Sequence record: MW630116.1
DNA: 64,000 nucleotides
DNA from: Escherichia phage vB_EcoM-ZQ3
Strand: one strand, 5' to 3'
Shown here: in pieces, positions 6,265 through 44,133 of the stretch
Position numbering within the stretch: position 1 is the stretch's first letter
Layout of the letters: each line of letters opens with the position of its first letter
The notes under the pieces: model-generated
The model's database searches: none
Seen by the model: the letters and a program-made list of their open reading frames with translations, nothing else
What the model was told of the DNA's origin: nothing
Translations under genes and position numbers: made by a program

Positions 6265-8976
6265 ATGAAAGAATTTTACTTAACGGTTGAACAGATTGGT
6301 GATTCAATTTTTGAACGTTACATCGATTCTAACGGCCGTGAACGTACTCGTGAAGTAGAATATAAACCATCACTGTTTGCTCATTGTCCAGAAAGTCAGG
6401 CTACGAAATATTTCGATATCTACGGTAAGCCGTGTACTCGTAAGTTGTTCGCCAATATGCGTGATGCCTCACAATGGATTAAACGCATGGAAGATATCGG
6501 ACTTGAAGCACTTGGCATGGACGATTTCAAATTGGCGTATTTGTCTGACACTTATAACTATGAAATCAAATACGACCATACAAAAATTCGTGTGGCTAAC
6601 TTCGACATCGAAGTAACATCTCCAGATGGGTTCCCTGAGCCGTCACAAGCAAAACATCCGATTGATGCTATCACCCATTATGACTCAATTGATGACAGGT
6701 TTTATGTATTTGACCTTTTGAATTCTCCATATGGTAATGTAGAAGAATGGTCTATTGAAATCGCTGCTAAGCTTCAAGAACAAGGCGGTGATGAAGTTCC
6801 ATCCGAAATTATCGACAAAATCATTTATATGCCGTTCGATAACGAAAAAGAATTGTTGATGGAATATCTCAACTTCTGGCAACAGAAAACTCCTGTCATT
6901 TTGACTGGATGGAACGTTGAGTCATTTGATATTCCATATGTGTATAACCGAATCAAGAATATTTTTGGCGAATCTACTGCGAAACGTTTATCACCACATC
7001 GCAAAACTCGTGTTAAAGTTATCGAAAACATGTATGGTTCTCGTGAAATCATTACATTGTTCGGTATCTCTGTTCTTGATTACATTGATCTTTACAAAAA
7101 ATTCTCTTTTACCAATCAACCGTCGTATTCTCTGGATTACATTTCAGAATTTGAATTGAACGTTGGTAAACTGAAATATGACGGCCCTATTTCTAAGCTT
7201 CGTGAAAGCAATCACCAACGATATATTTCTTATAACATTATCGACGTATATCGTGTATTGCAAATTGATGCTAAGCGTCAGTTCATCAACTTGAGTTTGG
7301 ACATGGGTTATTATGCTAAAATTCAGATTCAATCTGTGTTTAGCCCAATTAAAACATGGGATGCTATTATTTTTAATAGCCTTAAAGAGCAGAACAAGGT
7401 GATTCCACAAGGTCGTTCTCACCCGGTTCAACCTTATCCAGGCGCTTTTGTTAAGGAACCTATTCCAAATCGATACAAATATGTAATGAGTTTCGACCTT
7501 ACATCCCTGTATCCAAGTATTATTCGCCAAGTGAATATTAGCCCAGAAACAATAGCAGGAACGTTTAAAGTAGCTCCATTGCATGATTATATTAACGCTG
7601 TTGCTGAACGTCCTTCTGATGTGTACAGTTGTTCTCCTAACGGCATGATGTATTATAAAGACCGTGATGGTGTAGTTCCAACTGAAATCACTAAGGTCTT
7701 TAATCAACGTAAAGAACATAAAGGTTACATGCTTGCAGCTCAACGTAATGGTGAAATAATTAAAGAGGCATTGCATAATCCTAATCTTTCTGTTGACGAA
7801 CCATTAGATGTTGATTATCGTTTCGACTTCAGTGATGAGATTAAAGAAAAGATTAAAAAGTTGTCTGCTAAATCTCTTAATGAAATGTTGTTTAGAGCTC
7901 AACGTACTGAAGTTGCAGGTATGACTGCCCAAATTAACCGTAAATTGCTTATCAACTCACTTTATGGTGCACTTGGCAACGTTTGGTTCCGTTATTATGA
8001 TTTGCGTAATGCTACTGCAATCACAACATTTGGTCAAATGGCTTTACAGTGGATTGAACGTAAAGTTAATGAATATCTGAATGAAGTTTGTGGCACAGAA
8101 GGTGAAGCTTTCGTTCTTTATGGTGATACAGACTCTATTTACGTATCTGCTGATAAAATTATCGATAAGGTTGGTGAATCTAAATTCCGTGATACCAACC
8201 ATTGGGTAGACTTCTTAGATAAGTTTGCACGTGAACGTATGGAACCAGCTATTGATAGAGGTTTCCGTGAAATGTGTGAATACATGAACAATAAACAACA
8301 CTTAATGTTCATGGACCGAGAAGCTATCGCTGGGCCTCCACTCGGTTCTAAAGGTATTGGTGGATTCTGGACTGGTAAGAAACGTTATGCATTAAACGTG
8401 TGGGATATGGAAGGTACTCGTTACGCTGAGCCTAAACTCAAAATCATGGGTCTAGAGACTCAGAAATCTTCGACTCCTAAAGCAGTACAGAAAGCTCTTA
8501 AAGAATGTATTCGTCGTATGCTTCAAGAAGGTGAAGAATCATTACAAGAATATTTTAAAGAGTTTGAAAAAGAATTCCGTCAATTGAATTATATTAGCAT
8601 CGCGTCGGTATCTTCTGCGAATAACATTGCTAAATATGATGTAGGTGGATTCCCTGGTCCCAAATGCCCGTTCCATATTCGTGGAATTCTGACGTATAAC
8701 CGTGCTATCAAAGGTAATATCGATGCACCGCAAGTTGTAGAAGGTGAAAAAGTATATGTTCTGCCTTTACGTGAAGGAAACCCATTCGGTGATAAATGTA
8801 TCGCATGGCCTTCTGGTACTGAAATCACAGATTTAATTAAAGACGATGTACTTCACTGGATGGACTACACTGTTCTCCTTGAGAAGACATTTATTAAACC
8901 ACTTGAAGGATTCACATCAGCAGCGAAACTCGATTATGAGAAGAAAGCATCTCTGTTCGATATGTTCGATTTTTGA
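6265..8976 (+). CDS. 43: DNA polymerase gp43 (family B, with 3-prime to 5-prime exonuclease)
   Basis: 903 aa; exo motifs FDIE/YNIIDVY, pol motifs SLYPS, KILLNSLYG-like, YGDTDS; sequence matches my recollection of RB69 gp43. Confidence 0.97.
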   Translation: MKEFYLTVEQIGDSIFERYIDSNGRERTREVEYKPSLFAHCPESQATKYFDIYGKPCTRKLFANMRDASQWIKRMEDIGLEALGMDDFKLAYLSDTYNYEIKYDHTKIRVANFDIEVTSPDGFPEPSQAKHPIDAITHYDSIDDRFYVFDLLNSPYGNVEEWSIEIAAKLQEQGGDEVPSEIIDKIIYMPFDNEKELLMEYLNFWQQKTPVILTGWNVESFDIPYVYNRIKNIFGESTAKRLSPHRKTRVKVIENMYGSREIITLFGISVLDYIDLYKKFSFTNQPSYSLDYISEFELNVGKLKYDGPISKLRESNHQRYISYNIIDVYRVLQIDAKRQFINLSLDMGYYAKIQIQSVFSPIKTWDAIIFNSLKEQNKVIPQGRSHPVQPYPGAFVKEPIPNRYKYVMSFDLTSLYPSIIRQVNISPETIAGTFKVAPLHDYINAVAERPSDVYSCSPNGMMYYKDRDGVVPTEITKVFNQRKEHKGYMLAAQRNGEIIKEALHNPNLSVDEPLDVDYRFDFSDEIKEKIKKLSAKSLNEMLFRAQRTEVAGMTAQINRKLLINSLYGALGNVWFRYYDLRNATAITTFGQMALQWIERKVNEYLNEVCGTEGEAFVLYGDTDSIYVSADKIIDKVGESKFRDTNHWVDFLDKFARERMEPAIDRGFREMCEYMNNKQHLMFMDREAIAGPPLGSKGIGGFWTGKKRYALNVWDMEGTRYAEPKLKIMGLETQKSSTPKAVQKALKECIRRMLQEGEESLQEYFKEFEKEFRQLNYISIASVSSANNIAKYDVGGFPGPKCPFHIRGILTYNRAIKGNIDAPQVVEGEKVYVLPLREGNPFGDKCIAWPSGTEITDLIKDDVLHWMDYTVLLEKTFIKPLEGFTSAAKLDYEKKASLFDMFDF

Positions 8977-9016
8977 TATAATGTCATGGACGGTAAACTA
9001 ATTAAATGAGAGAAAT

Positions 9017-9652
9017 ATGAAAACTACTCCTATTACTATCGCTATTGACGCAATCATAAAACAAGCTTCTTCTTTGGCCGCTATGGCCAAAGTAATTAGT
9101 CAAAACCCTGCTCGTTATAATGCTATTCTAGAAACTCTTCGACGCCCAGGACTTAGTAATTATGAAAGCCGAGTAATTATTACAGGTGTTGGTAAGAATG
9201 CTAATATTGCAACTAAAGCTTCTGAGACATTTGCTTCACTCGGTATCCCGAGTATGTACTTGAACACTGGGCATTATTCTCACGGTGATGCAGGATTCAT
9301 TGCGCCTAATGATGTGTTGATTCATATTAGTCGTTCTGGTAAAACTGAAGAAATGATAGGCGTGGCTAAGCATCTTAAAATGATTCGTCCGAACGTCAAA
9401 CAGATTCTGTTGCATTGTAACCCGGACATTCCACAAGAATACGAAGCTCTTTTTGATTATACGTTCTGTACAGGCATCGCAGTAGAGGTTGATGAGAATT
9501 CTCTGGCTCCGACCATGTCCACTACATTGTTGTTAGCGCTTATCGATACGTTTGCTATCAACCTTTCGTCTGAACGTGGATTTACCTCTAATGACTTCCT
9601 TAAGTTCCACCCTGGCGGTGCACTAGGTGCCATGTTACGAGGCGAACAATGA
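9017..9652 (+). CDS. SIS-domain sugar-phosphate isomerase, KdsD/GutQ-like D-arabinose-5-phosphate isomerase (no CBS domains)
   Basis: VGKNANIATKASETFASLGIPS...HGD...ISRSGKT and LAPTMSTT...FHPGGALG closely parallel the KdsD SIS core, including conserved Lys and His. Confidence 0.8.
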   Translation: MKTTPITIAIDAIIKQASSLAAMAKVISQNPARYNAILETLRRPGLSNYESRVIITGVGKNANIATKASETFASLGIPSMYLNTGHYSHGDAGFIAPNDVLIHISRSGKTEEMIGVAKHLKMIRPNVKQILLHCNPDIPQEYEALFDYTFCTGIAVEVDENSLAPTMSTTLLLALIDTFAINLSSERGFTSNDFLKFHPGGALGAMLRGEQ

Positions 9653-9833: not shown

Positions 9834-11522
9834 ATGAAAAAAGCTGTTATTCTTGGTGCTGGACTGGCAACTCGTTTGTATCCAATAACGCATCATATTC
9901 CTAAGGTGCTTGTTAACTATAAACAAGACACTATTCTGAGCAATTTGTATACAATTTATTCTGACCTTGGCGCAGACGAAATTATTGTAGTAGTTCATTC
10001 AAAATTTGCTGAAACTGTTCGAGCTTATTGTGAGCAAGAAGGGTTCAATGTGACTATTCGTACAGTTGATGAAGCGTATGGTTCTGCTTATGCTCTTGCT
10101 AAATTACACAAAGATTTAAACGGCCATAATGTAATTGTTAACTGGTGTGATATTATTCCTGATTTTGGTTCGTGGTCTTGGAATGTTAACGCAATCTATG
10201 TTAAGGGTGACGAATGTCGATATAATTTCGACGGTGAAAATATCACTAATGTAGGTTCAACAGGTGGTAATGTTGTAGGAATTTATCAGTTCAAAGACTG
10301 GGAATTCTATATGGGTTCTACTGATGAGGAAATTCATGAATACTGCAAAGGACGTGATTTCGTAGAATTCCTTTACGGCAGCGCATTCAATAAATCAGAG
10401 CTTATGAATATCATCGACCTTGGTGATATGCCTAAACTTGAAAAAGCTCATGAAGTTCGTGAACTTAATCGTAGTTTTAATGCAGTTGAAATTGGCGAAG
10501 AAACGGTAACAAAGATTGCTTTAACAGAACAGGGCGTTGCACTTCAAAAAGATGAAGTCAATTGGTATAAGAAAGTTAAATCAGATTCAGTTCCACGGAT
10601 TGTAAGTTATCATCCTGGCGGCCACTTTATTATGGAACGTATTAAAGGTAAGCCGGCATTTGAATATATTAAATCCAAATCAAGTCTTGCTCGTCCACAA
10701 ATTGTTGATGCAATTTTAGATGCACTGAAATTCAGCACAGACACTTATTTTGTAAGTCCTGAAACTGTTCGTCGTGATTTCACTAAAGAGTTCTATACGA
10801 AAGTTATTGATCGTTGTGAAAGTATTCAACCATTGATTGATTCATTTGGTAAAATCACACATGTGAACTACACTAAGATTGGGCGTCTGAAGCCAATGCT
10901 GAAACAAGCTTTAGAACACCTTATTCGTTATCATAACCGTTCTCAGGGACAGTACTCTGTTATTCATGGTGACCCGAACTTCAGTAATACTATGATTACT
11001 GATAATGGTGAAGTCAAGTTTATCGACCCTCGTGGATATTTTGGTGAAACCAAGATTTATGGGCCAAAATTGTATGATGAAGCTAAAGTGCTTTATGCTG
11101 TTTCAGGTTATGATGAATTCAACGCTAATCCGACTTGGGGACAGTTTACTATTGATGAAACAACTTGTAATGTGACTATTAACATCAATCCGTTAGTTTA
11201 CAAATATGGAAAGATGAGTTCGTTTAACGAGTATCATCATTTGGCAGTGGCAATTATCTGGATTGCATTGGGTGGTTATTTCAAGAATAATCCACTTAAA
11301 GCGGTAGCCGCATATTATAAAGGTATGGAACTTCTGACTAAGCAATTACGTAACATGGGCCGTGTACTTCAGGACGGCTCTATTAGTTATGACGTAGCAG
11401 AACCTGTAACGGCTACTCTGATTACAAAAAATCCTGGTAAATGGGTACTAACTGATAAAGAAACTGGTGTTTCTTATCGTCCAATCGGTGGCGATATCAC
11501 TCATCAATGGGAACGAATCTAA
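9834..11522 (+). CDS. bifunctional sugar kinase / sugar-1-phosphate nucleotidyltransferase
   Basis: N-terminus AVILGAGLATRLYPIT (RmlA/GlmU-type NTase motif); C-terminal HGDPNFSNTMIT and KFIDPRG (APH/choline-kinase-like Brenner motif). Confidence 0.8.
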   Translation: MKKAVILGAGLATRLYPITHHIPKVLVNYKQDTILSNLYTIYSDLGADEIIVVVHSKFAETVRAYCEQEGFNVTIRTVDEAYGSAYALAKLHKDLNGHNVIVNWCDIIPDFGSWSWNVNAIYVKGDECRYNFDGENITNVGSTGGNVVGIYQFKDWEFYMGSTDEEIHEYCKGRDFVEFLYGSAFNKSELMNIIDLGDMPKLEKAHEVRELNRSFNAVEIGEETVTKIALTEQGVALQKDEVNWYKKVKSDSVPRIVSYHPGGHFIMERIKGKPAFEYIKSKSSLARPQIVDAILDALKFSTDTYFVSPETVRRDFTKEFYTKVIDRCESIQPLIDSFGKITHVNYTKIGRLKPMLKQALEHLIRYHNRSQGQYSVIHGDPNFSNTMITDNGEVKFIDPRGYFGETKIYGPKLYDEAKVLYAVSGYDEFNANPTWGQFTIDETTCNVTININPLVYKYGKMSSFNEYHHLAVAIIWIALGGYFKNNPLKAVAAYYKGMELLTKQLRNMGRVLQDGSISYDVAEPVTATLITKNPGKWVLTDKETGVSYRPIGGDITHQWERI

Positions 11523-11908
11523 TGCACCGTGTAGAAAACATGCTTAATCTTTGTTTTGATGTCGATGATTGTATAACAGAGTGGAATAACAATCGTGATT
11601 ACGTGAACTTCAAACCAGACGTCGAAATGGTGTCTGCCATTAATGCCCTGTATGATGCAGGGCATACCATAACGCTTTACACTGCTCGCGGTATGAAGTC
11701 AGTCGGTCCTGGTCGTATAGCAATTGACATTCTCCCAAGTCTGATTCAGAACTTGGCAAACATTGGATTGAAGTACCATAATTTGCTAACACATAAACCA
11801 GTATATGATTGGATTATCGACGATAAAGCTATGCGTCCTGACGAATTCAAAGCTCTTATGAATAAAGGCGAATTCGAAACATTTAAATCATATAAACCGA
11901 ATCTATAA
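11522..11908 (+). CDS. small HAD-superfamily phosphatase
   Basis: TAATG overlap; candidate HAD motifs FDVDD (I), LYTARG (II), K in THKPVYD (III), IIDDK (IV). Confidence 0.65.
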   Translation: MHRVENMLNLCFDVDDCITEWNNNRDYVNFKPDVEMVSAINALYDAGHTITLYTARGMKSVGPGRIAIDILPSLIQNLANIGLKYHNLLTHKPVYDWIIDDKAMRPDEFKALMNKGEFETFKSYKPNL

Positions 11909-11964
11909 TAATTTAAGTAAGACCTGCAAAAACCATCGCGTCAATTAACGTGAGATGCAAAAAA

Positions 11965-13125
11965 ATGAATACCTTTAAAATCGGAACGAATTTTGATTTA
12001 GCTCTTCTTGATAAAATCGTAGAGCTCAATAAAACTTATCCTAATAGCTTGATAAATGAAGTATACGGCTCTACAAGAGAAATGGCTTTTGTAGCAGCCA
12101 GACCTGATTTTAGGCTTCCTGACGTTGACAAAAAGATGTTAGAAGATTATGTTAAACGTTGTAACGAATTAGGTATTTGCTTTAACTATACACTCAACAC
12201 GATAAATCCTGGTTCAAAAAGAGAACTAGTTGAGTGGAAGAAGAAAGCTATTCAGGATTATGTTCAGTATCTTTGGTCAATAGGCGTATGGCGTATTACT
12301 ATCGCTAACCCTGTTGTTATGGAAATTGTTCGTGAAGTCAATAAAGACATTGAGATTGAAGTTTCAACAATTCTACATGTTGATGCTGTAACTCAAATCA
12401 AATACTTGCATGACCAGTATAATATCAAAAAGGTCTGCTGTGGAATTCATAAGAACCGTTCAGTTTCTTTCCTGAAGCGTGCAGCAGAGTTTTGCAATAA
12501 GAACAATATAATATTTGAAGTTCTCGTAAATGAATTCTGTTCTAATGCCGGTAAAGGGTATACAACACATTGTAGCTATCGTGACTCTTGCTATATTTTC
12601 CATAGCACAGATGTTACAGTAGATGATGCTAAATCCTTAAATGGATATCCAATGCAACACTGCATTAAAGCTCGTGATACAGACCCATTTAACTGGTTGA
12701 GAACTCGTTTTGTTCGTCCTCAAGATTTGAAACTTTATAATGATATTGGTATCACTCAATTCAAAGTTTCAGGACGTACAGGTAGCACAGACTACATTTT
12801 GAAAGTTCTTGAAGCTTATGCTTCTGAAAAATTTGAAGGTAATTTGTTGGAATTGTGGAAGCCTTTAGAGACCATTTTCACTCTTGAAAATGAGACCGAG
12901 TTTTCACATACGGTAAATATTGAAACCTCTTTGTTAGATGGCTTTTTAGAAAAAAGGTGGTTCAAACATCCAGATTTCGATTGTGCTAATGAAATCTGCG
13001 GGACGACGTGTACATATTGTGAAAGATATTATAAACGTCAGTTATCTAAAAATGGGTTATCAGAAAACTCTATATCTATTATTGATATAACTAACTCTGA
13101 CGACGCTTTGAGGTACCCAGAATGA
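11965..13125 (+). CDS. Cys-rich enzyme of uncertain family (possibly peptidase-U32-like Fe-S TIM-barrel protein)
   Basis: 386 aa from ATG 11965; cysteine clusters EFCSNAGKGYTTHCSYRDSC and C-terminal CANEICGTTCTYC; QFKVSGR resembles the U32 KIEGR-type motif; assignment tentative. Confidence 0.75.
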   Translation: MNTFKIGTNFDLALLDKIVELNKTYPNSLINEVYGSTREMAFVAARPDFRLPDVDKKMLEDYVKRCNELGICFNYTLNTINPGSKRELVEWKKKAIQDYVQYLWSIGVWRITIANPVVMEIVREVNKDIEIEVSTILHVDAVTQIKYLHDQYNIKKVCCGIHKNRSVSFLKRAAEFCNKNNIIFEVLVNEFCSNAGKGYTTHCSYRDSCYIFHSTDVTVDDAKSLNGYPMQHCIKARDTDPFNWLRTRFVRPQDLKLYNDIGITQFKVSGRTGSTDYILKVLEAYASEKFEGNLLELWKPLETIFTLENETEFSHTVNIETSLLDGFLEKRWFKHPDFDCANEICGTTCTYCERYYKRQLSKNGLSENSISIIDITNSDDALRYPE

Positions 13126-13283
13126 TTTCTAGAAAAACTTTTAACCACCAACTTAATGAAGAGATTTTGACTACGAAAATTAACAGCAACGAACAAATTC
13201 TTAAAAAGGCCCTGATGGGCCTGTTTGAAACTAAAGCGGCTAAAGTGATTAAAGAAACCTGTTCAACTAGAATACTATGCTGA
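13122..13283 (+). CDS. possible 53-aa small protein
   Basis: ATGA overlap with upstream stop; no homology recognised. Confidence 0.3.
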   Translation: MISRKTFNHQLNEEILTTKINSNEQILKKALMGLFETKAAKVIKETCSTRILC

Positions 13284-13359
13284 TGCATTTCTTCATAGTG
13301 TTCTTGGAAGTATCGATGCTGAAGCTTTACGTTATATCAACATTGTCAAGAAATTCAAA

Positions 13360-13385
13360 TAAGCTTTACGAATTGAGTATATAAT
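13360..13385 (+). promoter_or_regulatory. putative MotA-dependent middle promoter
   Basis: taaGCTTTA box, 11-nt gap, TATAAT 13380-13385; aagctttacg also at 13322. Confidence 0.45.
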
Positions 13386-13404
13386 AAATTGTATTGAGGT
13401 AAAC

Positions 13405-14121
13405 ATGGGAAAACATAACACAATGAAATATATCAAAGCCGCAGATTTTCAAACCGCATTTAAAGCAGTCAATCGTGAAATTTTAGAAAACCCGGAATTC
13501 GTAACTGATTCTCGTATTGGACGTTGTAATGAAATTGGGTCTATGACAGTAGTTGTTGATACCCCTTCATCATTCAAAATGACCGACCCACGTATTAATC
13601 GCATCTCTTATGAATATGCTGAAGATTTCTGGAAGTTTATGATTTCTGGTGGTACCAACGCAGAAGAAGCGTTTAAGGCATATCCTAATGTCGCTAAATT
13701 TATTTCTAAACCAAAATCAGATGTTTTGCCTGCAAACTTCAACACTTTCTATGGTCCACGAATTGCGGCCCAGTTACCAGCTCTTCTAAAAGAACTTAAA
13801 GAGAAGCCTAACTCTCGAAGAGTTGTGTTCCAAATTCTAGAAAGTTCTGATCAGGCTTTGCTTGATTCAGACGAAACGCTTGAATATCCATGTACTGACT
13901 CAGTGACTTATTATATTCGTGATGGTAAGCTTTATACCCACTGTCATATGCGTTCTCAGAACTGTGCTGTTGTTATGCAGTTGGATTTTTATCTCCAAGG
14001 AAAATTACTTCATTATATCGCTAACGAATGCGGTGTAGAAGTTGGTGATTATACTCATACCATGGTAAGTGCCCATGTGTTTGAACGTGATTTTGATTAT
14101 GTTAAAGGATTCCTTGACTAA
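13405..14121 (+). CDS. thymidylate-synthase-fold pyrimidine-modifying enzyme, divergent dCMP hydroxymethylase (gene 42)-like
   Basis: 238 aa; NSRRVVFQI, YPCTDSVTYYIRDGKL and SAHVFERDF parallel the T4 gp42/TS motifs SRRGIMIY, FMCTNTVQYLIRDKKI, SLHVYSRHF. Confidence 0.8.
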   Translation: MGKHNTMKYIKAADFQTAFKAVNREILENPEFVTDSRIGRCNEIGSMTVVVDTPSSFKMTDPRINRISYEYAEDFWKFMISGGTNAEEAFKAYPNVAKFISKPKSDVLPANFNTFYGPRIAAQLPALLKELKEKPNSRRVVFQILESSDQALLDSDETLEYPCTDSVTYYIRDGKLYTHCHMRSQNCAVVMQLDFYLQGKLLHYIANECGVEVGDYTHTMVSAHVFERDFDYVKGFLD

Positions 14122-15020
14122 TGGCTATTTTCCGCGTACCTATCTTGAGTATGCGGTCTTATGAAACTGGACAGTATGCTATCCTTAAGGATGGCAACTT
14201 CCAACTTCATTTGCACCGTGCTAATCCGGGTGATGTGATTACATATCCACGTAATGCATCTGATATTAAAGAATGCGAACGTCTTTTTCCAGAATTTAAG
14301 TTTGTTCCATTATGGTATAAAGATAACGCGTATAACACTCGTAAATATTTCTGGTCTGAAAATGAATTTGTGGTTGATTCATTAATTGCTTATTATGATT
14401 GTGATTTTCTAATCACAGATATCACTGGATATGACGGTGCTTTTGATGTGGAATTCAATTTCAATATCACTGCAGACCCTAATAAACCACGTTTTTATAT
14501 TGACGAATTCTTAAAAACCGATATGTTGTCGGTTAATCGTTCACTTCAAACTACTGTGTTGAATAAACGTCAAAAGGAAGTGCTGGTTAACGCTGGTGCC
14601 GATGGTAATAAGATTATCGTAACCCAGAAAGTTATACGTCCTTCCATCATGCAGCGTCTTGTAGGTGATTTGGCTCCTATTCATCTAGATGGTATTTTTC
14701 ATCCATTTCGAATTAGTGACCCGTGCTATCGTTTTGAACAAGTGGTTGAATGTGCAATTCAATTAGGCCAACCGCTTTATATAACCGATCCAAATAATAG
14801 CTTCGACAGAAATAAGTATCCTGAAGAAGCGCTGATTCGAATTTTTAAACCAACTAAAACCGAGTACTATCAAATTCTTAAAGGACGTCCAAAGATTCAA
14901 TATTTCGAAAATCCTGAAGAAGTATTCCATCCAGGTCTTGGTGAGTTCATCTACTTTAATGCTTTAATTTCTTCGCCGTATAATATACCTAAATACGAAG
15001 ATGTCGTAATCGAGGAATAA
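14121..15020 (+). CDS. hypothetical protein (299 aa), function unknown
   Basis: TAATG overlap with the TS-like gene; no recognised motifs. Confidence 0.75.
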   Translation: MAIFRVPILSMRSYETGQYAILKDGNFQLHLHRANPGDVITYPRNASDIKECERLFPEFKFVPLWYKDNAYNTRKYFWSENEFVVDSLIAYYDCDFLITDITGYDGAFDVEFNFNITADPNKPRFYIDEFLKTDMLSVNRSLQTTVLNKRQKEVLVNAGADGNKIIVTQKVIRPSIMQRLVGDLAPIHLDGIFHPFRISDPCYRFEQVVECAIQLGQPLYITDPNNSFDRNKYPEEALIRIFKPTKTEYYQILKGRPKIQYFENPEEVFHPGLGEFIYFNALISSPYNIPKYEDVVIEE

Positions 15021-15021
15021 A

Positions 15022-15570
15022 ATGGCTAAAATTATTTTAGTAGATGGCCCGGATAATGCCGGTAAAACAACTTTCATTAATGACATAATGGAAATTAGTG
15101 AAAGATATGTAAAGATTGATTTCCCTAAACGAACAGTTGACGGACGTTTCGATGTTAAGTCTCGAAATGAAGTTGGCTGTTTCGAAACGATGTTGAATTA
15201 TTTAGACCCTACTAAGATTTATCTGTTAGATCGTGGATATATTAGTAACTGGGTTTACGGACGTATTCGACAAGATGCGGACTCGGTTCTTGACGTTTAT
15301 GAACAGGATTATGTTCGTCTTTGCCAAAACCATGATGTGTTCACAATTATTTTAACACGTAACGAAATGACTGAAAGTTTTGAAGACGACCTTATTACTT
15401 TGTCTTCATTCGGTTTTAATACAGTAATTTCATATTTTGAAGAGTTTGCAATCCATAACGAAATCCAAACGTATCAATTACTTAATCATGATGGTGCTAA
15501 CAAAGTTATAGGATTTAATGCAAGCGAACGTAATAATTTGATTACAGAAATTATCAAATGGGCTCGTTAA
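15022..15570 (+). CDS. P-loop kinase (nucleotide/nucleoside kinase-like)
   Basis: Walker A GPDNAGKTT near N-terminus; LDRGYISNWVYG resembles dNK/TMK-type motif. Confidence 0.8.
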   Translation: MAKIILVDGPDNAGKTTFINDIMEISERYVKIDFPKRTVDGRFDVKSRNEVGCFETMLNYLDPTKIYLLDRGYISNWVYGRIRQDADSVLDVYEQDYVRLCQNHDVFTIILTRNEMTESFEDDLITLSSFGFNTVISYFEEFAIHNEIQTYQLLNHDGANKVIGFNASERNNLITEIIKWAR

Positions 15571-23014: not shown

Positions 23015-23536
23015 ATGGCACACTTTAACGAATGTTCACAACTTATTTCTGGTGTTGATAAAGCAGAAGAAGCTTATTTTAATGCTCTGATTCACGAAGA
23101 TAAAGACCCACTGCAGGTAATGCTTGATATGCAGAAATCTTTACAGGTTCGTCTGGCAAATGACAAGCCTGAACATAACAAACATCCTGATGAATTGGCT
23201 ACTGCTGGTGATGTTGTTGATTGGCTGCGTAATCAGAAAGATTATATTGATGATGAATTCCGTGAACTGCTGACTTCACTTGGTGGTATGAGCAATGGTG
23301 AAAAGGCCGCTAGCTCTGTATGGAAGCCGTGGAAGGCCCAGCATGCTGAATATCGAAATCGTCGTATCGATGAACTGTCTCCTGAAGACCAGCTTGAAAT
23401 TAAATTCGAGATGATTGATATTCTGCATTTCGTTCTAAATATGTTCCAAGGTCTAGGACTTTCTGCTGAAGAAATCTTCAAACTGTATTACCTGAAAAAC
23501 CAACACAACTTTGAACGCCAGGATAATGGTTACTAA
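23015..23536 (+). CDS. 56: dCTP pyrophosphatase gp56 (MazG-like)
   Basis: starts MAHFNEC; DPLQVMLDMQ, ETAGDVV, EIKFE and FKLYYLKN match recalled T4 gp56. Confidence 0.9.
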   Translation: MAHFNECSQLISGVDKAEEAYFNALIHEDKDPLQVMLDMQKSLQVRLANDKPEHNKHPDELATAGDVVDWLRNQKDYIDDEFRELLTSLGGMSNGEKAASSVWKPWKAQHAEYRNRRIDELSPEDQLEIKFEMIDILHFVLNMFQGLGLSAEEIFKLYYLKNQHNFERQDNGY

Positions 23537-34619: not shown

Positions 34620-35720
34620 ATGAAAGTTATGTTTATCCCATCTCGTGCAGTCCCATTTAATCCTGACCGTGTACAAGGTGGTCTTGAAGCAGTACATTTA
34701 AATGTGTTGAAATATCTTGTGTCCATCGGTGCTGATATTGATTATATCGGTTTTGATAATGACACATTTGGTGATTGGAAGGTTAATCATCATCCTGTTG
34801 GTCATCTGACTAAATTCAGTCTAGGTATGAGTTATACTATGGCTCGTAAGATTGTTGAACTAGCCGGCATCCATGAATACGATTTTGTTGTTACTATGGA
34901 AACGACTAAACTAACCGTTCAGGCAATTAAAGACGCAGGTCTCTCTAAAGTTCATAAGAATTTTATGGCAACACCATTTGAACCGGTATCTCGTGGCATT
35001 GTTCAAATTTGGGACCAGACTATTCAAATTCATAAGAATGGTGGTAAGAGTTATGCTCCTACTAAAGCCTTCCGTGAATTTGAACGCAAATATTGTTATA
35101 TGACTTCAGGTCTGACTGACAAAATTGATTACGATTATTGGCGAGCAAATCCGTTGTTTGAAGCCGAAGATTATCCGGTTATTTGTTTGAATGAGAAACC
35201 TGAAGTTCTTCCGGCGACTGATCTGATTATTAGTGCACAACGTTATGACACTAAAATGCGTCGTACTGATGTTGCTCTTGAAGCGATTAAAGCACTAGGC
35301 GAAAATGGTGTAGGATACTGTCCTAGTAAATGGGCACCACCGGCTAAGTATCCTGTTATTATTGATGCTCCACACAGTGAAATCATGGAACGTCTTAAAA
35401 CAGCTAAAGCACTTATCAATACGTGTCCTGACACGGGTACGGTAGAGAATAGTTCTATTGAAGCCATCTCTAAAGGTGTCCCTGTGATTCAGTTAGTTTT
35501 TAAGGATTATCCGCACGCGACATTCGAATATGACCCAGATACTGTGCGTGTAGAAATTGATTCCTCTACTCCTAAGAAAGAAGTAGTTGCGCTTTACACA
35601 AAAGCGGTATTAGAATTCACTGACACATACGAAGCTCGAGTTAAACGTGCTGAAGCAGTATGGAAGAAGTATAACCGAGATGCGGTTGTTGCGATGTGGG
35701 ATAAAATCTTCACAGCGTAA
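34620..35720 (+). CDS. putative GT-B-fold glycosyltransferase (candidate DNA sugar transferase)
   Basis: N-terminal GGLEAVHLNVLKYL; C-terminal GTVENSSIEAISKGVPVI resembles the GT4-type EX7E/donor-binding segment. Confidence 0.7.
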   Translation: MKVMFIPSRAVPFNPDRVQGGLEAVHLNVLKYLVSIGADIDYIGFDNDTFGDWKVNHHPVGHLTKFSLGMSYTMARKIVELAGIHEYDFVVTMETTKLTVQAIKDAGLSKVHKNFMATPFEPVSRGIVQIWDQTIQIHKNGGKSYAPTKAFREFERKYCYMTSGLTDKIDYDYWRANPLFEAEDYPVICLNEKPEVLPATDLIISAQRYDTKMRRTDVALEAIKALGENGVGYCPSKWAPPAKYPVIIDAPHSEIMERLKTAKALINTCPDTGTVENSSIEAISKGVPVIQLVFKDYPHATFEYDPDTVRVEIDSSTPKKEVVALYTKAVLEFTDTYEARVKRAEAVWKKYNRDAVVAMWDKIFTA

Positions 35721-43500: not shown

Positions 43501-44133
43501 ATGTCTAAAGTTACTTACATCATCAAAGCTTCTGAAAACGTTCTGAATGAAAAAACTGCTGCAATAATGGTTTATATCATTAAGAACAACTTCACCACTG
43601 CTGCCAATGTCCGTGAAGCTCTGGAAGCTGAATACAATGCATCAGTTGTTAACTCTAACATTGGTGTATTGATTAAGAAAGGTTTAGTCGAAAAATCTGG
43701 TGATGGACTTATAGCAACAGGCGAAGCAATGGATATTATCCAAAAAGCTGCAGACCTCTTTGCCCAAGAAAATGCTCCAGAACTTCTTCAGAAACGTAAC
43801 ACTAGAAAAGCACGTGGAGTTACTCCCGAAATGCATGAATTAGCAAACTTTGTTTTTGAAAATATTAAAGATAAAGTTGAAGTTAAAGAAATTGGTGAAA
43901 ACCGTAGTAACTTGGAAGTTCGATTTGCAAAACGAGTTCTAGGTATTCGTCAGATCGAAATTCGTCGAGATGGTTGTCTTAGAATATTTGCATACAACAT
44001 GTCAGAAACTGAATCAAAGCTGTTTACTTCTCTTGAAAATGATGTTAAGATTAAGATCGGTGGTAAATATACTTACATTGACTTCCCTAATGTGTCCAAA
44101 GAAATCATTACCCTTGTAACTAACGTACTGTGA
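43501..44133 (+). CDS. motA: middle-transcription activator MotA
   Basis: 210 aa; MSKVTYIIKAS...NSNIGVLIKKGLVEKSGDGL matches recalled T4 MotA. Confidence 0.9.
   Translation: MSKVTYIIKASENVLNEKTAAIMVYIIKNNFTTAANVREALEAEYNASVVNSNIGVLIKKGLVEKSGDGLIATGEAMDIIQKAADLFAQENAPELLQKRNTRKARGVTPEMHELANFVFENIKDKVEVKEIGENRSNLEVRFAKRVLGIRQIEIRRDGCLRIFAYNMSETESKLFTSLENDVKIKIGGKYTYIDFPNVSKEIITLVTNVL

Follow-up and report, generated by a model that had tools for sequence, protein, structure and literature searches.

The window analysed here is a 64,000-nucleotide (nt) stretch of Escherichia phage vB_EcoM-ZQ3 (record MW630116.1), a Mosigvirus (RB69-like T-even phage) that shares 98.6 % identity with Escherichia phage HY126 across 7 kb. 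Between the genes for the DNA polymerase gp43 and uvsX it encodes, on the + strand, a U32-family protein of 386 amino acids (aa) (11965..13125), the homologue of RB69 ORF050c/RB69p050, which is probably a cytosine nucleotide hydroxylase that operates without O2. The open reading frame (ORF) extends from a GTG codon at 11950 to position 13125 (391 aa), while an in-frame ATG at 11965 yields the 386-aa product. The latter is the likely start, as homologues begin at the same methionine (MNTFK...). An earlier sequence-only reading had described a cysteine-rich ORF of 386 aa at 11965-13125 with a C-terminal C-x4-C-x3-C-x2-C and a QFKVSGR segment, had remarked that the PROSITE U32 signature is not matched exactly, and had placed the gene inside a modification cassette. 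Each of these observations holds. The protein contains thirteen cysteines (3.4 % of residues, against 1.04 % in the long ORFs of the window; binomial p = 2.6e-4), the two motifs occupy residues 340-352 (CANEICGTTCTYC) and 265-271, respectively, a regular expression search of the protein returned no exact PROSITE match, and the gene lies in a cluster of arabinose, thymidylate-synthase-like (TS-like), glycosyltransferase and kinase genes.

The assignment to the U32 family, put forward as weak in that reading together with a Pfam search and structure comparison as checks, is supported by both, as well as by the FK[IV]xGR strand. Pfam PF01136 (Peptidase_U32) matches residues 94-286 (profile positions 2-192 of 233) with 42.4 bits, above the curated gathering score of 22.4 (E = 6.3e-11), and the protein also matches PHROG 5757 (2e-266). 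The AlphaFold2 model, built with 111 homologues, has a predicted local distance difference test score of 93.6 and a predicted template modelling score of 0.91, and its alternating strands and helices form a TIM-barrel like that of Mk0906 (PDB 5D88). This structure was recovered by fold comparison only, with a sequence search of the PDB returning nothing at E <= 1. Residues K267, G270 and R271 are retained from the phage family through to Escherichia coli UbiU, RlhA and TrhP. However, the protein shares no more than 18-20 % of its residues with UbiU, UbiV, RlhA and TrhP of E. coli, reaches 19.4 bits with the NCBIfam UbiU equivalog (cut-off 440) and lacks the additional C-terminal domains found in RlhA and TrhP. 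On these grounds the phage protein can be placed, by sequence comparison, in the U32 family but outside every characterised subfamily (RlhA/TrhP/UbiU/UbiV), in a subfamily comprising 113 cluster representatives at E <= 1e-30 out of 1180 U32-like matches. The best profile match is RlhA (hhalign probability 86 %; 'CYIFH' versus 'CYISH'), while hhalign against a single UbiU sequence was uninformative (probability 5.6 %). The PROSITE-type pattern E-x-F-x2-G-[SA]-[LIVM]-C-x4-G-x-C-x-[LIVM]-S is matched by E. coli UbiU, RlhA and TrhP and by neither UbiV nor the phage protein, being broken in the phage subfamily by an insertion (EFCSNAGKGYTT) and a C-x5-C spacing. A Pfam search of the U32 protein gave no thymidylate synthase match, the TS-like gene being a separate ORF (13405-14121); the U32 protein can only be a functional analogue of the TS-superfamily 5-hydroxy-dCMP (5-hydroxydeoxycytidine monophosphate) synthases, and not a member of that superfamily.

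Among 121 homologues (46-100 % identity) nine cysteines, C158, C192, C203, C209, C233, C340, C345, C349 and C352, are invariant and a tenth, C177, is 98 % conserved, and the cysteines have therefore been selected rather than accumulated by chance. Four of them fall within the core region E185-C233 (12517..12663), where C192, C203, C209 and C233 are candidates for holding a [4Fe-4S] cluster in the U32 domain; in both the MAFFT alignment and the hhalign comparison with RlhA, C203 and C209 fall on canonical U32 iron-sulphur (Fe-S) cysteines. The FKVSGR motif (residues 266-271; 12760..12777), which corresponds to the U32 'FK[IV]xGR' strand, includes the conserved K267, G270 and R271. The C340/C345/C349/C352 motif (12982..13020) is specific to the subfamily, with no counterpart in UbiU, UbiV or TrhP in the MAFFT alignment. 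It is a possible second metal or Fe-S site and, more speculatively, may hold a second cluster through which electrons exit. The gene is under strong purifying selection, with ratios of non-synonymous to synonymous substitution (dN/dS) of 0-0.024 within Mosigvirus and 0.02-0.07 between genera.

The neighbouring genes, all on the + strand, belong to a pathway of DNA modification. Upstream are a SIS-domain arabinose-5-phosphate isomerase (API; 9017..9652; Pfam SIS 41.2 bits; homologue of RB69 gp55), a bifunctional nucleotidyltransferase/kinase (9834..11522; Pfam NTP_transferase and APH; homologue of AfhE / RB69 gp52:53, with its function taken from PMC13326640) and a HAD-type phosphatase (11507..11908; homologue of AfhF / RB69 gp51). 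Downstream, a conserved small gene of 53 aa (13122..13283) overlaps the U32 stop codon (ATGA) and is followed by an intergenic gap of ~120 nt (13284..13404), the TS-like gene (13405..14121; Pfam Thymidylat_synt 56.9 bits; homologue of RB69 gp48, with its function likewise from PMC13326640), a glycosyltransferase predicted to be the first DNA arabinosyltransferase (14121..15020; homologue of RB69 gp46:47) and a thymidylate-kinase-like nucleotide kinase (15022..15570; homologue of RB69p045). The same modification pathway includes a gp56-type dCTP pyrophosphatase (23015-23536) and a second glycosyltransferase of the RB69 gp3 type (34620-35720), located between a topoisomerase gene and rIIA. The DNA of RB69 carries mono- and di-arabinosylated 5-hydroxycytosine, with cytosine fully replaced in these phages (Lee et al., NAR 2026, PMC13326640). 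The TS-like gp48 of RB69 binds flavin and produces 5-hydroxy-dCMP, with the oxygen derived from O2 as determined by 18O2 labelling (PMC13326640), while AfhE and AfhF of HY126 prepare UDP-arabinose from arabinose 5-phosphate (He et al., as relayed in PMC13326640).

The U32 gene itself has attracted little comment. A Pfam U32 match for RB69 ORF050c was tabulated as early as 2006 (PMC1524935), and GenBank records name the gene 'peptidase', 'putative protease' or 'collagenase-like protease'. Lee et al. give 5D88 as the best structural match of RB69p050 in their Table 1, do not discuss the protein in the text, and cite RNA hydroxylation pathways (Kimura 2017, Lauhon 2019) in their discussion while not pointing out the homologue in the cluster (PMC13326640). 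No discussed function for the gene was found in the surveyed literature, with the Thanatos paper, the Durham-collection paper and Thomas et al. 2018 silent on it. He et al. 2026 and Mahler et al. 2025 may address the gene; Lee et al., who postdate and cite both, still discuss no function for it.

By tblastn, the U32 gene could be identified in 221 phage records (>=80 % identity), whose phages all belong to the Straboviridae and infect Enterobacterales or Shewanella. A further ~100 metagenomic proteins are related at 46-58 % identity, with none of this distant type among the cultured phages of the GenBank collection. Forty-eight IMG/VR loci (labelled L with a number) were retrieved with the U32 alignment, thirty-three of which are not T4-like, with flanks of up to 10 kb, and were complemented by scans anchored on the glycosyltransferase and on the TS-like protein, which do not depend on U32. 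Among thirty-eight informative loci of the glycosyltransferase-anchored scan, fifteen contain both the U32 and TS-like genes, fifteen the TS-like gene only (Dhakavirus, Acinetobacter and Pseudomonas phages, together with two distant contigs), eight U32 only and none lack both. A whole-collection scan for the TS-like gene, which rests on two peptide patterns, recovered 0/33 of the non-T4-like U32 contigs, and the distant U32 loci contain no TS-like hydroxylase within 10 kb, with L030 encoding an ordinary ThyA. Glycosyltransferase homologues accompany U32 in 25/39 distant loci, often in the order kinase-glycosyltransferase-U32 and with or without arabinose genes, and kinases related to the RB69p045 type (Pfam Thymidylate_kin 34.7 bits) flank the glycosyltransferase-U32 pair in distant phages. 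This 'either or both' pattern, together with the common kinase and glycosyltransferase partners, is as expected if the same step were served by two analogous enzymes. Among the partners of U32 in L013 and L036 are a TET-associated-type (TAGT) glycosyltransferase, a dUTPase/dCTP deaminase and a UDP-galactopyranose mutase, and the recurrence of the kinase-glycosyltransferase-U32 order with non-arabinose sugar genes thus ties U32 to the base rather than to the sugar. Elsewhere, neighbours acting at the nucleotide level include dCMP deaminase, dUTPase/dCTP deaminase, deoxynucleoside kinase, NT5C and nucleoside monophosphate (NMP) kinases. In the Dhakavirus CLB_P2 (L009:5468-6004) a thymidylate-kinase-like gene occupies the U32 slot, with the TS-like, glycosyltransferase and arabinose genes present.

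Several loci with other architectures were also observed. Two jumbo-phage-like loci with DNA polymerase III alpha (L003:7447-9086 and L011:5504-7083) encode a dCMP deaminase directly before U32 and no glycosyltransferase near it; the U32 product there might be a 5-hydroxyuracil nucleotide. A second module consists of a GP88-family protein, a guanylate-kinase-domain/SAM-methyltransferase fusion (425-443 aa), a 264-282-aa protein without a Pfam match and U32 (L103/L004, L109, L110, L111, L112 and L113, with L112 being a Phocaeicola faecalis isolate scaffold). Its composition suggests that nucleotide hydroxylation would be followed by O-methylation and phosphorylation. A comparable sequence of steps converts 5-hydroxyuridine (ho5U) to 5-methoxyuridine (mo5U) in Bacillus tRNA. 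One 86-kb contig (L004:8001-15428) encodes two U32-like proteins, possibly a heteromer like UbiU/UbiV, in the surroundings of NT5C, an NMN transporter, a deoxynucleoside kinase, a radical-SAM/SPASM protein and a nucleoside 2-deoxyribosyltransferase-like gene. Furthermore, many uncultured viral contigs spanning 21-57 % G+C (L117-L124, L150-L162) encode the TS-like protein and kinase without U32, most of them with a glycosyltransferase, and 5-hydroxycytosine-based DNA seems, from such gene content, to be far more widespread than the T4-like phages.

Enzymes of prephenate formation accompany this U32 subfamily. In Enterobacter phage Entb_45 a 79-aa gene (L002:6158-6397), which overlaps the U32 stop codon on one side and the start codon of the TS-like gene on the other, encodes a chorismate mutase of type II (Pfam CM_2, 40.9 bits; gathering score 27). 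A chorismate mutase gene lies between the U32 and TS-like genes in 13/15 T4-like representatives, a position occupied in the window by the gap at 13284..13404, and the same gene occurs in fifty-six GenBank phage records, with hosts including Klebsiella, Serratia, Yersinia, Edwardsiella, Pectobacterium, Erwinia, Providencia, Morganella, Proteus and Shewanella, as well as in Escherichia phage EcS1. The phage mutases are 75-125 aa in length, mostly translationally coupled to their neighbours, and are found in most genera other than Mosigvirus (L002, L016-L029, L101, L116); Mosigvirus and two Klebsiella phages (SAKp28 and Clarke_MM3) lack them. Residues R11, R28, K39, S84 and Q88 of the E. coli PheA mutase domain, which we take to be its active-site residues, are invariant in the alignment, and the T4-like enzymes lack ~12 residues around D48-E52. 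Across forty-nine TS-like loci, thirteen encode U32 and the mutase, two U32 without the mutase, thirty-four neither and none the mutase without U32. The chorismate mutase tracks U32 and not the TS-like gene.

This linkage extends beyond the T4-like phages. Six jumbo-phage contigs encode a chorismate mutase directly after U32, a DAHP-synthase/chorismate-mutase fusion (Pfam 88.7 and 71.8 bits) occurs at most two genes from U32 in five contigs (L040, at 8411-9430, L042, L043, L044 and L054), and a DAHP synthase alone follows U32 in two more (L010, at 7145-7888, and L028), with the DAHP synthases being of type I-beta. Genes of the prephenate pathway have thus become associated with this type of U32 on at least three occasions, in differing arrangements, and by their sequences the phages carry both the entry step of the shikimate pathway and the prephenate-forming step. 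The DAHP_synth_1 neighbours were also considered as KDO-8-P synthases, which would fit arabinose 5-phosphate metabolism; this was rejected on the NCBIfam scores (131-237 bits for DAHP against 47-63 for KDO8PS) and on the fusion of five of the proteins to chorismate mutase. UbiU/UbiV take their oxygen from prephenate, which RlhA and TrhP also need in order to function (PMC10990095). In the window itself the mutase gene is absent, and the functional link of U32 to a prephenate supply is one of genomic evidence. The 53-aa ORF was examined as a decayed chorismate mutase and rejected, as BLASTP found no similarity, the mutase hidden Markov model (HMM) finds nothing in the window at E < 1, and homologues of the ORF occur alongside the mutase in Tegunavirus-type loci. 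Such homologues lie between U32 and chorismate mutase in L021, L023 and L029; because they coexist with the mutase in other genera, Mosigvirus has apparently lost the latter, and would appear to depend on host PheA and TyrA for prephenate.

The distribution of the two hydroxylase candidates also follows, in part, the oxygen requirements of the hosts. A total of 373 phage records contain the TS-like gene, among them those of fifty-seven Acinetobacter and twenty Rhizobium phages and of Agrobacterium phages, and U32 is absent from all of the Acinetobacter (57), Rhizobium and Agrobacterium records with the TS-like gene. These three host genera are aerobes. When one genome per prokaryotic species was scanned, the U32 subfamily was found in twelve contigs, binned with Erysipelotrichales, Oscillospiraceae, Gastranaerophilaceae, Romboutsia, Tannerella, Phocaeicola, Angelakisella and others, with the phage-type module in 5/12 and the TS-like gene in 0/12. 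The U32-only loci derive from uncultured phages, several of which are binned with strict anaerobes (Oscillospiraceae, Romboutsia, Erysipelotrichales and Gastranaerophilaceae).

Taken together, these patterns suggest that the U32 protein hydroxylates a cytosine nucleotide at C5 in a prephenate-dependent reaction without O2, the substrate most likely being dCMP and the product 5-hydroxy-dCMP; to this reading a probability of roughly 60 % can be attached. We infer the substrate, the use of prephenate, the independence from O2 and the role of the C-terminal cysteines from sequence and gene neighbourhood. The enzyme would be the anaerobic counterpart of the neighbouring O2-requiring TS-like flavoenzyme, yielding the same product. 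Since the known synthase depends on flavin and O2, an O2-free route would be useful to a phage of a facultative anaerobe of the gut. In the proposed mechanism the TIM-barrel U32 domain would bind a pyrimidine nucleotide and prephenate, and the ring would be oxidised by two electrons that exit via a [4Fe-4S] cluster on the core C192/C203/C209/C233, and perhaps also through a second centre at C340/C345/C349/C352. Prephenate would then decarboxylate and give a hydroxyl group to C5, producing 5-hydroxy-dCMP, phenylpyruvate and CO2; hydroxyl transfer from decarboxylating prephenate is the chemistry proposed for UbiU/UbiV (PMC10990095). After phosphorylation, the 5-hydroxy-dCMP would be built into DNA by the phage polymerase and would there receive its arabinose. 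With ~63,000 cytosines per genome (168.8 kb, 37.5 % G+C), a burst would consume an estimated millions of prephenate molecules, which makes a dedicated prephenate supply plausible. An extended form of this proposal, for which the odds appear about even, envisages a soluble, single-subunit, prephenate-dependent and O2-free pyrimidine deoxynucleotide 5-hydroxylase on which a large group of strict-anaerobe phages, none of them cultured, would rely as their only hydroxylase. These phages would have glycosylated 5-hydroxypyrimidine DNA and would secure the oxygen donor by means of a phage chorismate mutase and sometimes a DAHP synthase.

A number of points weigh against the proposed dCMP hydroxylase. 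The TS-like enzyme alone suffices for 5-hydroxydeoxycytidine (5hodC) in aerobic E. coli, and RB69p050 is tentatively listed as a 'Sugar or heterocycle reductase' in Table 1 of Lee et al. (PMC13326640). No U32 hydroxylase has yet been reconstituted in vitro (PMC10990095), and the known U32 substrates are RNA polymers or prenylphenols and not free nucleotides. MAFFT and hhalign differ in which cysteines they equate with the canonical ligands, such that the exact ligand set is ambiguous. U32 is missing from the Dhakaviruses of E. coli, which do have the TS-like gene, and the match to host oxygen requirement is therefore imperfect. The loci counted are phylogenetically non-independent, and the Mosigvirus of the window appears to have lost the phage chorismate mutase (no remnant at E < 1 in an HMM search).

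Of the alternatives, the best placed, albeit unlikely, retains the prephenate-dependent cytosine C5 chemistry but directs it at newly synthesised DNA after replication, or at dCDP/dCTP. RlhA, the best hhalign match, is an rRNA cytidine hydroxylase, all characterised nucleic-acid U32 enzymes act on polymers (PMC5727448, PMC6599085), and the TET-associated-type glycosyltransferase adjoining U32 in L013/L036 belongs to a class that follows a DNA-level oxidase in known systems. However, the dCTPase (23015-23536) and the complete replacement of cytosine require the modified dNTP to be supplied before replication, NMP or thymidylate-type kinases accompany U32 in three different contexts, and the extra C-terminal domains of RlhA/TrhP are missing.

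Somewhat less probable is a tailoring or redox enzyme of the sugar branch, involved in UDP-arabinose biosynthesis or in the reduction of a sugar or heterocycle. Such a role accords with the label of RB69p050 in Table 1 of Lee et al. and with the GenBank record of phage ChristianSchoenbein ('putative enzyme involved in UDP-arabinose biosynthesis'), and the U32 gene does lie between the sugar genes (API, AfhE and AfhF) and the base genes, with the order glycosyltransferase-API-AfhE-x-U32 kept in ~11 distant loci. Yet AfhE/AfhF already prepare UDP-arabinose from arabinose 5-phosphate (He et al., as cited in PMC13326640), arabinose genes occur without U32 in Acinetobacter phage DLP3 and in the Dhakaviruses, and at least seven loci have the kinase-glycosyltransferase-U32 order without API or AfhE, some with galactofuranose genes instead. 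The linkage to chorismate mutase and DAHP synthase, furthermore, has no place in pentose activation.

There is a slim chance that the protein hydroxylates host or phage RNA (tRNA ho5U34 or rRNA 5-hydroxycytidine (ho5C) 2501), thereby tuning translation, with its position in the cluster being coincidental. This is the activity of the characterised relatives RlhA and TrhP, both of which require prephenate, and T4-like phages encode their own tRNAs, but identity to RlhA/TrhP is 18-20 % and their C-terminal domains are missing, synteny with glycosyltransferase, nucleotide kinase and dNTP-pool genes is maintained across phages at 40-55 % identity, and the distribution is complementary to that of the TS-like dCMP hydroxylase. 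A true collagenase-like peptidase is highly improbable, being favoured by the historical family name only, whereas conservation falls on cysteines of the kind seen in Fe-S U32 proteins, the surrounding genes serve nucleotide and sugar metabolism, and the characterised family members are linked to hydroxylation rather than proteolysis.

Within the window, the gap before the TS-like gene contains aaGCTTTA (GCTTTA at 13363-13368), followed after 11 nt by TATAAT (13380-13385) and by a GAGG Shine-Dalgarno sequence, an arrangement which we take to resemble a T4 MotA-dependent middle promoter; motA is located at 43501-44133. The TS-like, glycosyltransferase and kinase genes may, judging from this arrangement, be transcribed apart from the sugar genes and U32. 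A scan of the cluster for sigma-70 promoters and terminators gave no excess over shuffled sequence (22 versus 25.9). The 53-aa ORF is conserved in Mosigvirus, has weak homologues in Yersinia-phage-type loci (E = 1e-4 to 2e-7) and has no Pfam match.

The gene has been annotated as a U32 homologue before; its probable role is that of an O2-free hydroxylase of DNA precursors with a dedicated prephenate supply, on which many uncultured phages, several of them binned with anaerobes, would depend alone. If correct, this role would explain how phages with 5-hydroxycytosine DNA replicate in the anoxic gut although the known hydroxylase requires O2, would add DNA precursors to RNA and quinones as targets of U32/prephenate hydroxylation, and would account for the chorismate mutase and DAHP synthase genes carried by phages. 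With dCMP and prephenate as substrates, it could also provide the U32 field with its first in vitro assay. Many uncultured phages of anaerobes, with U32 and a glycosyltransferase but no TS-like gene, would be predicted to have hypermodified DNA, which bears on restriction evasion, phage therapy and sequencing bias.

Among known systems, the closest comparison is with RlhA (YdcP), the 5-hydroxycytidine synthase of C2501 in E. coli 23S rRNA. It belongs to the same Pfam family, has 'CYI[SF]H' and FK[IV]xGR in common with the phage protein, targets the same atom as predicted for the latter, the C5 of cytosine, and depends on prephenate and Fe-S (PMC5727448; PMC10990095). RlhA differs in its ~20 % identity, its length of 653 aa with extra C-terminal domains and its modification of a single rRNA residue, whereas the 386-aa phage protein has its own C-x4-C-x3-C-x2-C, a C192-bearing insertion and C-x5-C in place of C-x6-C, and is predicted to act stoichiometrically on the deoxynucleotide pool. 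UbiU and UbiV of E. coli are Fe-S U32 proteins that provide an O2-independent back-up for the flavin/O2 monooxygenases UbiI/H/F, the same logic as is proposed here, and UbiV, like the phage protein, does not match the PROSITE pattern. They share 18 % identity with the phage protein and act as a heterodimer on a prenylated phenol with the accessory protein UbiT, in contrast to the single phage gene. Similarly, TrhP (YegQ, acting on tRNA U34) and the O2-dependent TrhO constitute dual routes to one 5-hydroxypyrimidine (PMC6599085), although TrhP, at 18 % identity, has an RNA substrate and an extra C-terminal domain, unlike the phage protein. The TS-like 5-hydroxy-dCMP synthase (homologue of RB69 gp48/DLP3 gp80/HY126), encoded two genes downstream of U32 in the window, shares the predicted product, the cluster and the kinase and glycosyltransferase partners, but has an unrelated fold and cofactor and requires O2. 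Mk0906 (5D88), the only solved U32 structure, has 14 % identity, comprises the barrel only, lacks the C-terminal cysteine module of the phage protein and has no known function. A T-even precedent for an O2-dependent and O2-independent pair serving one DNA-precursor step is provided by the aerobic NrdAB and anaerobic NrdDG of T4, which differ in chemistry and family from the enzymes considered here and offer an analogy only.

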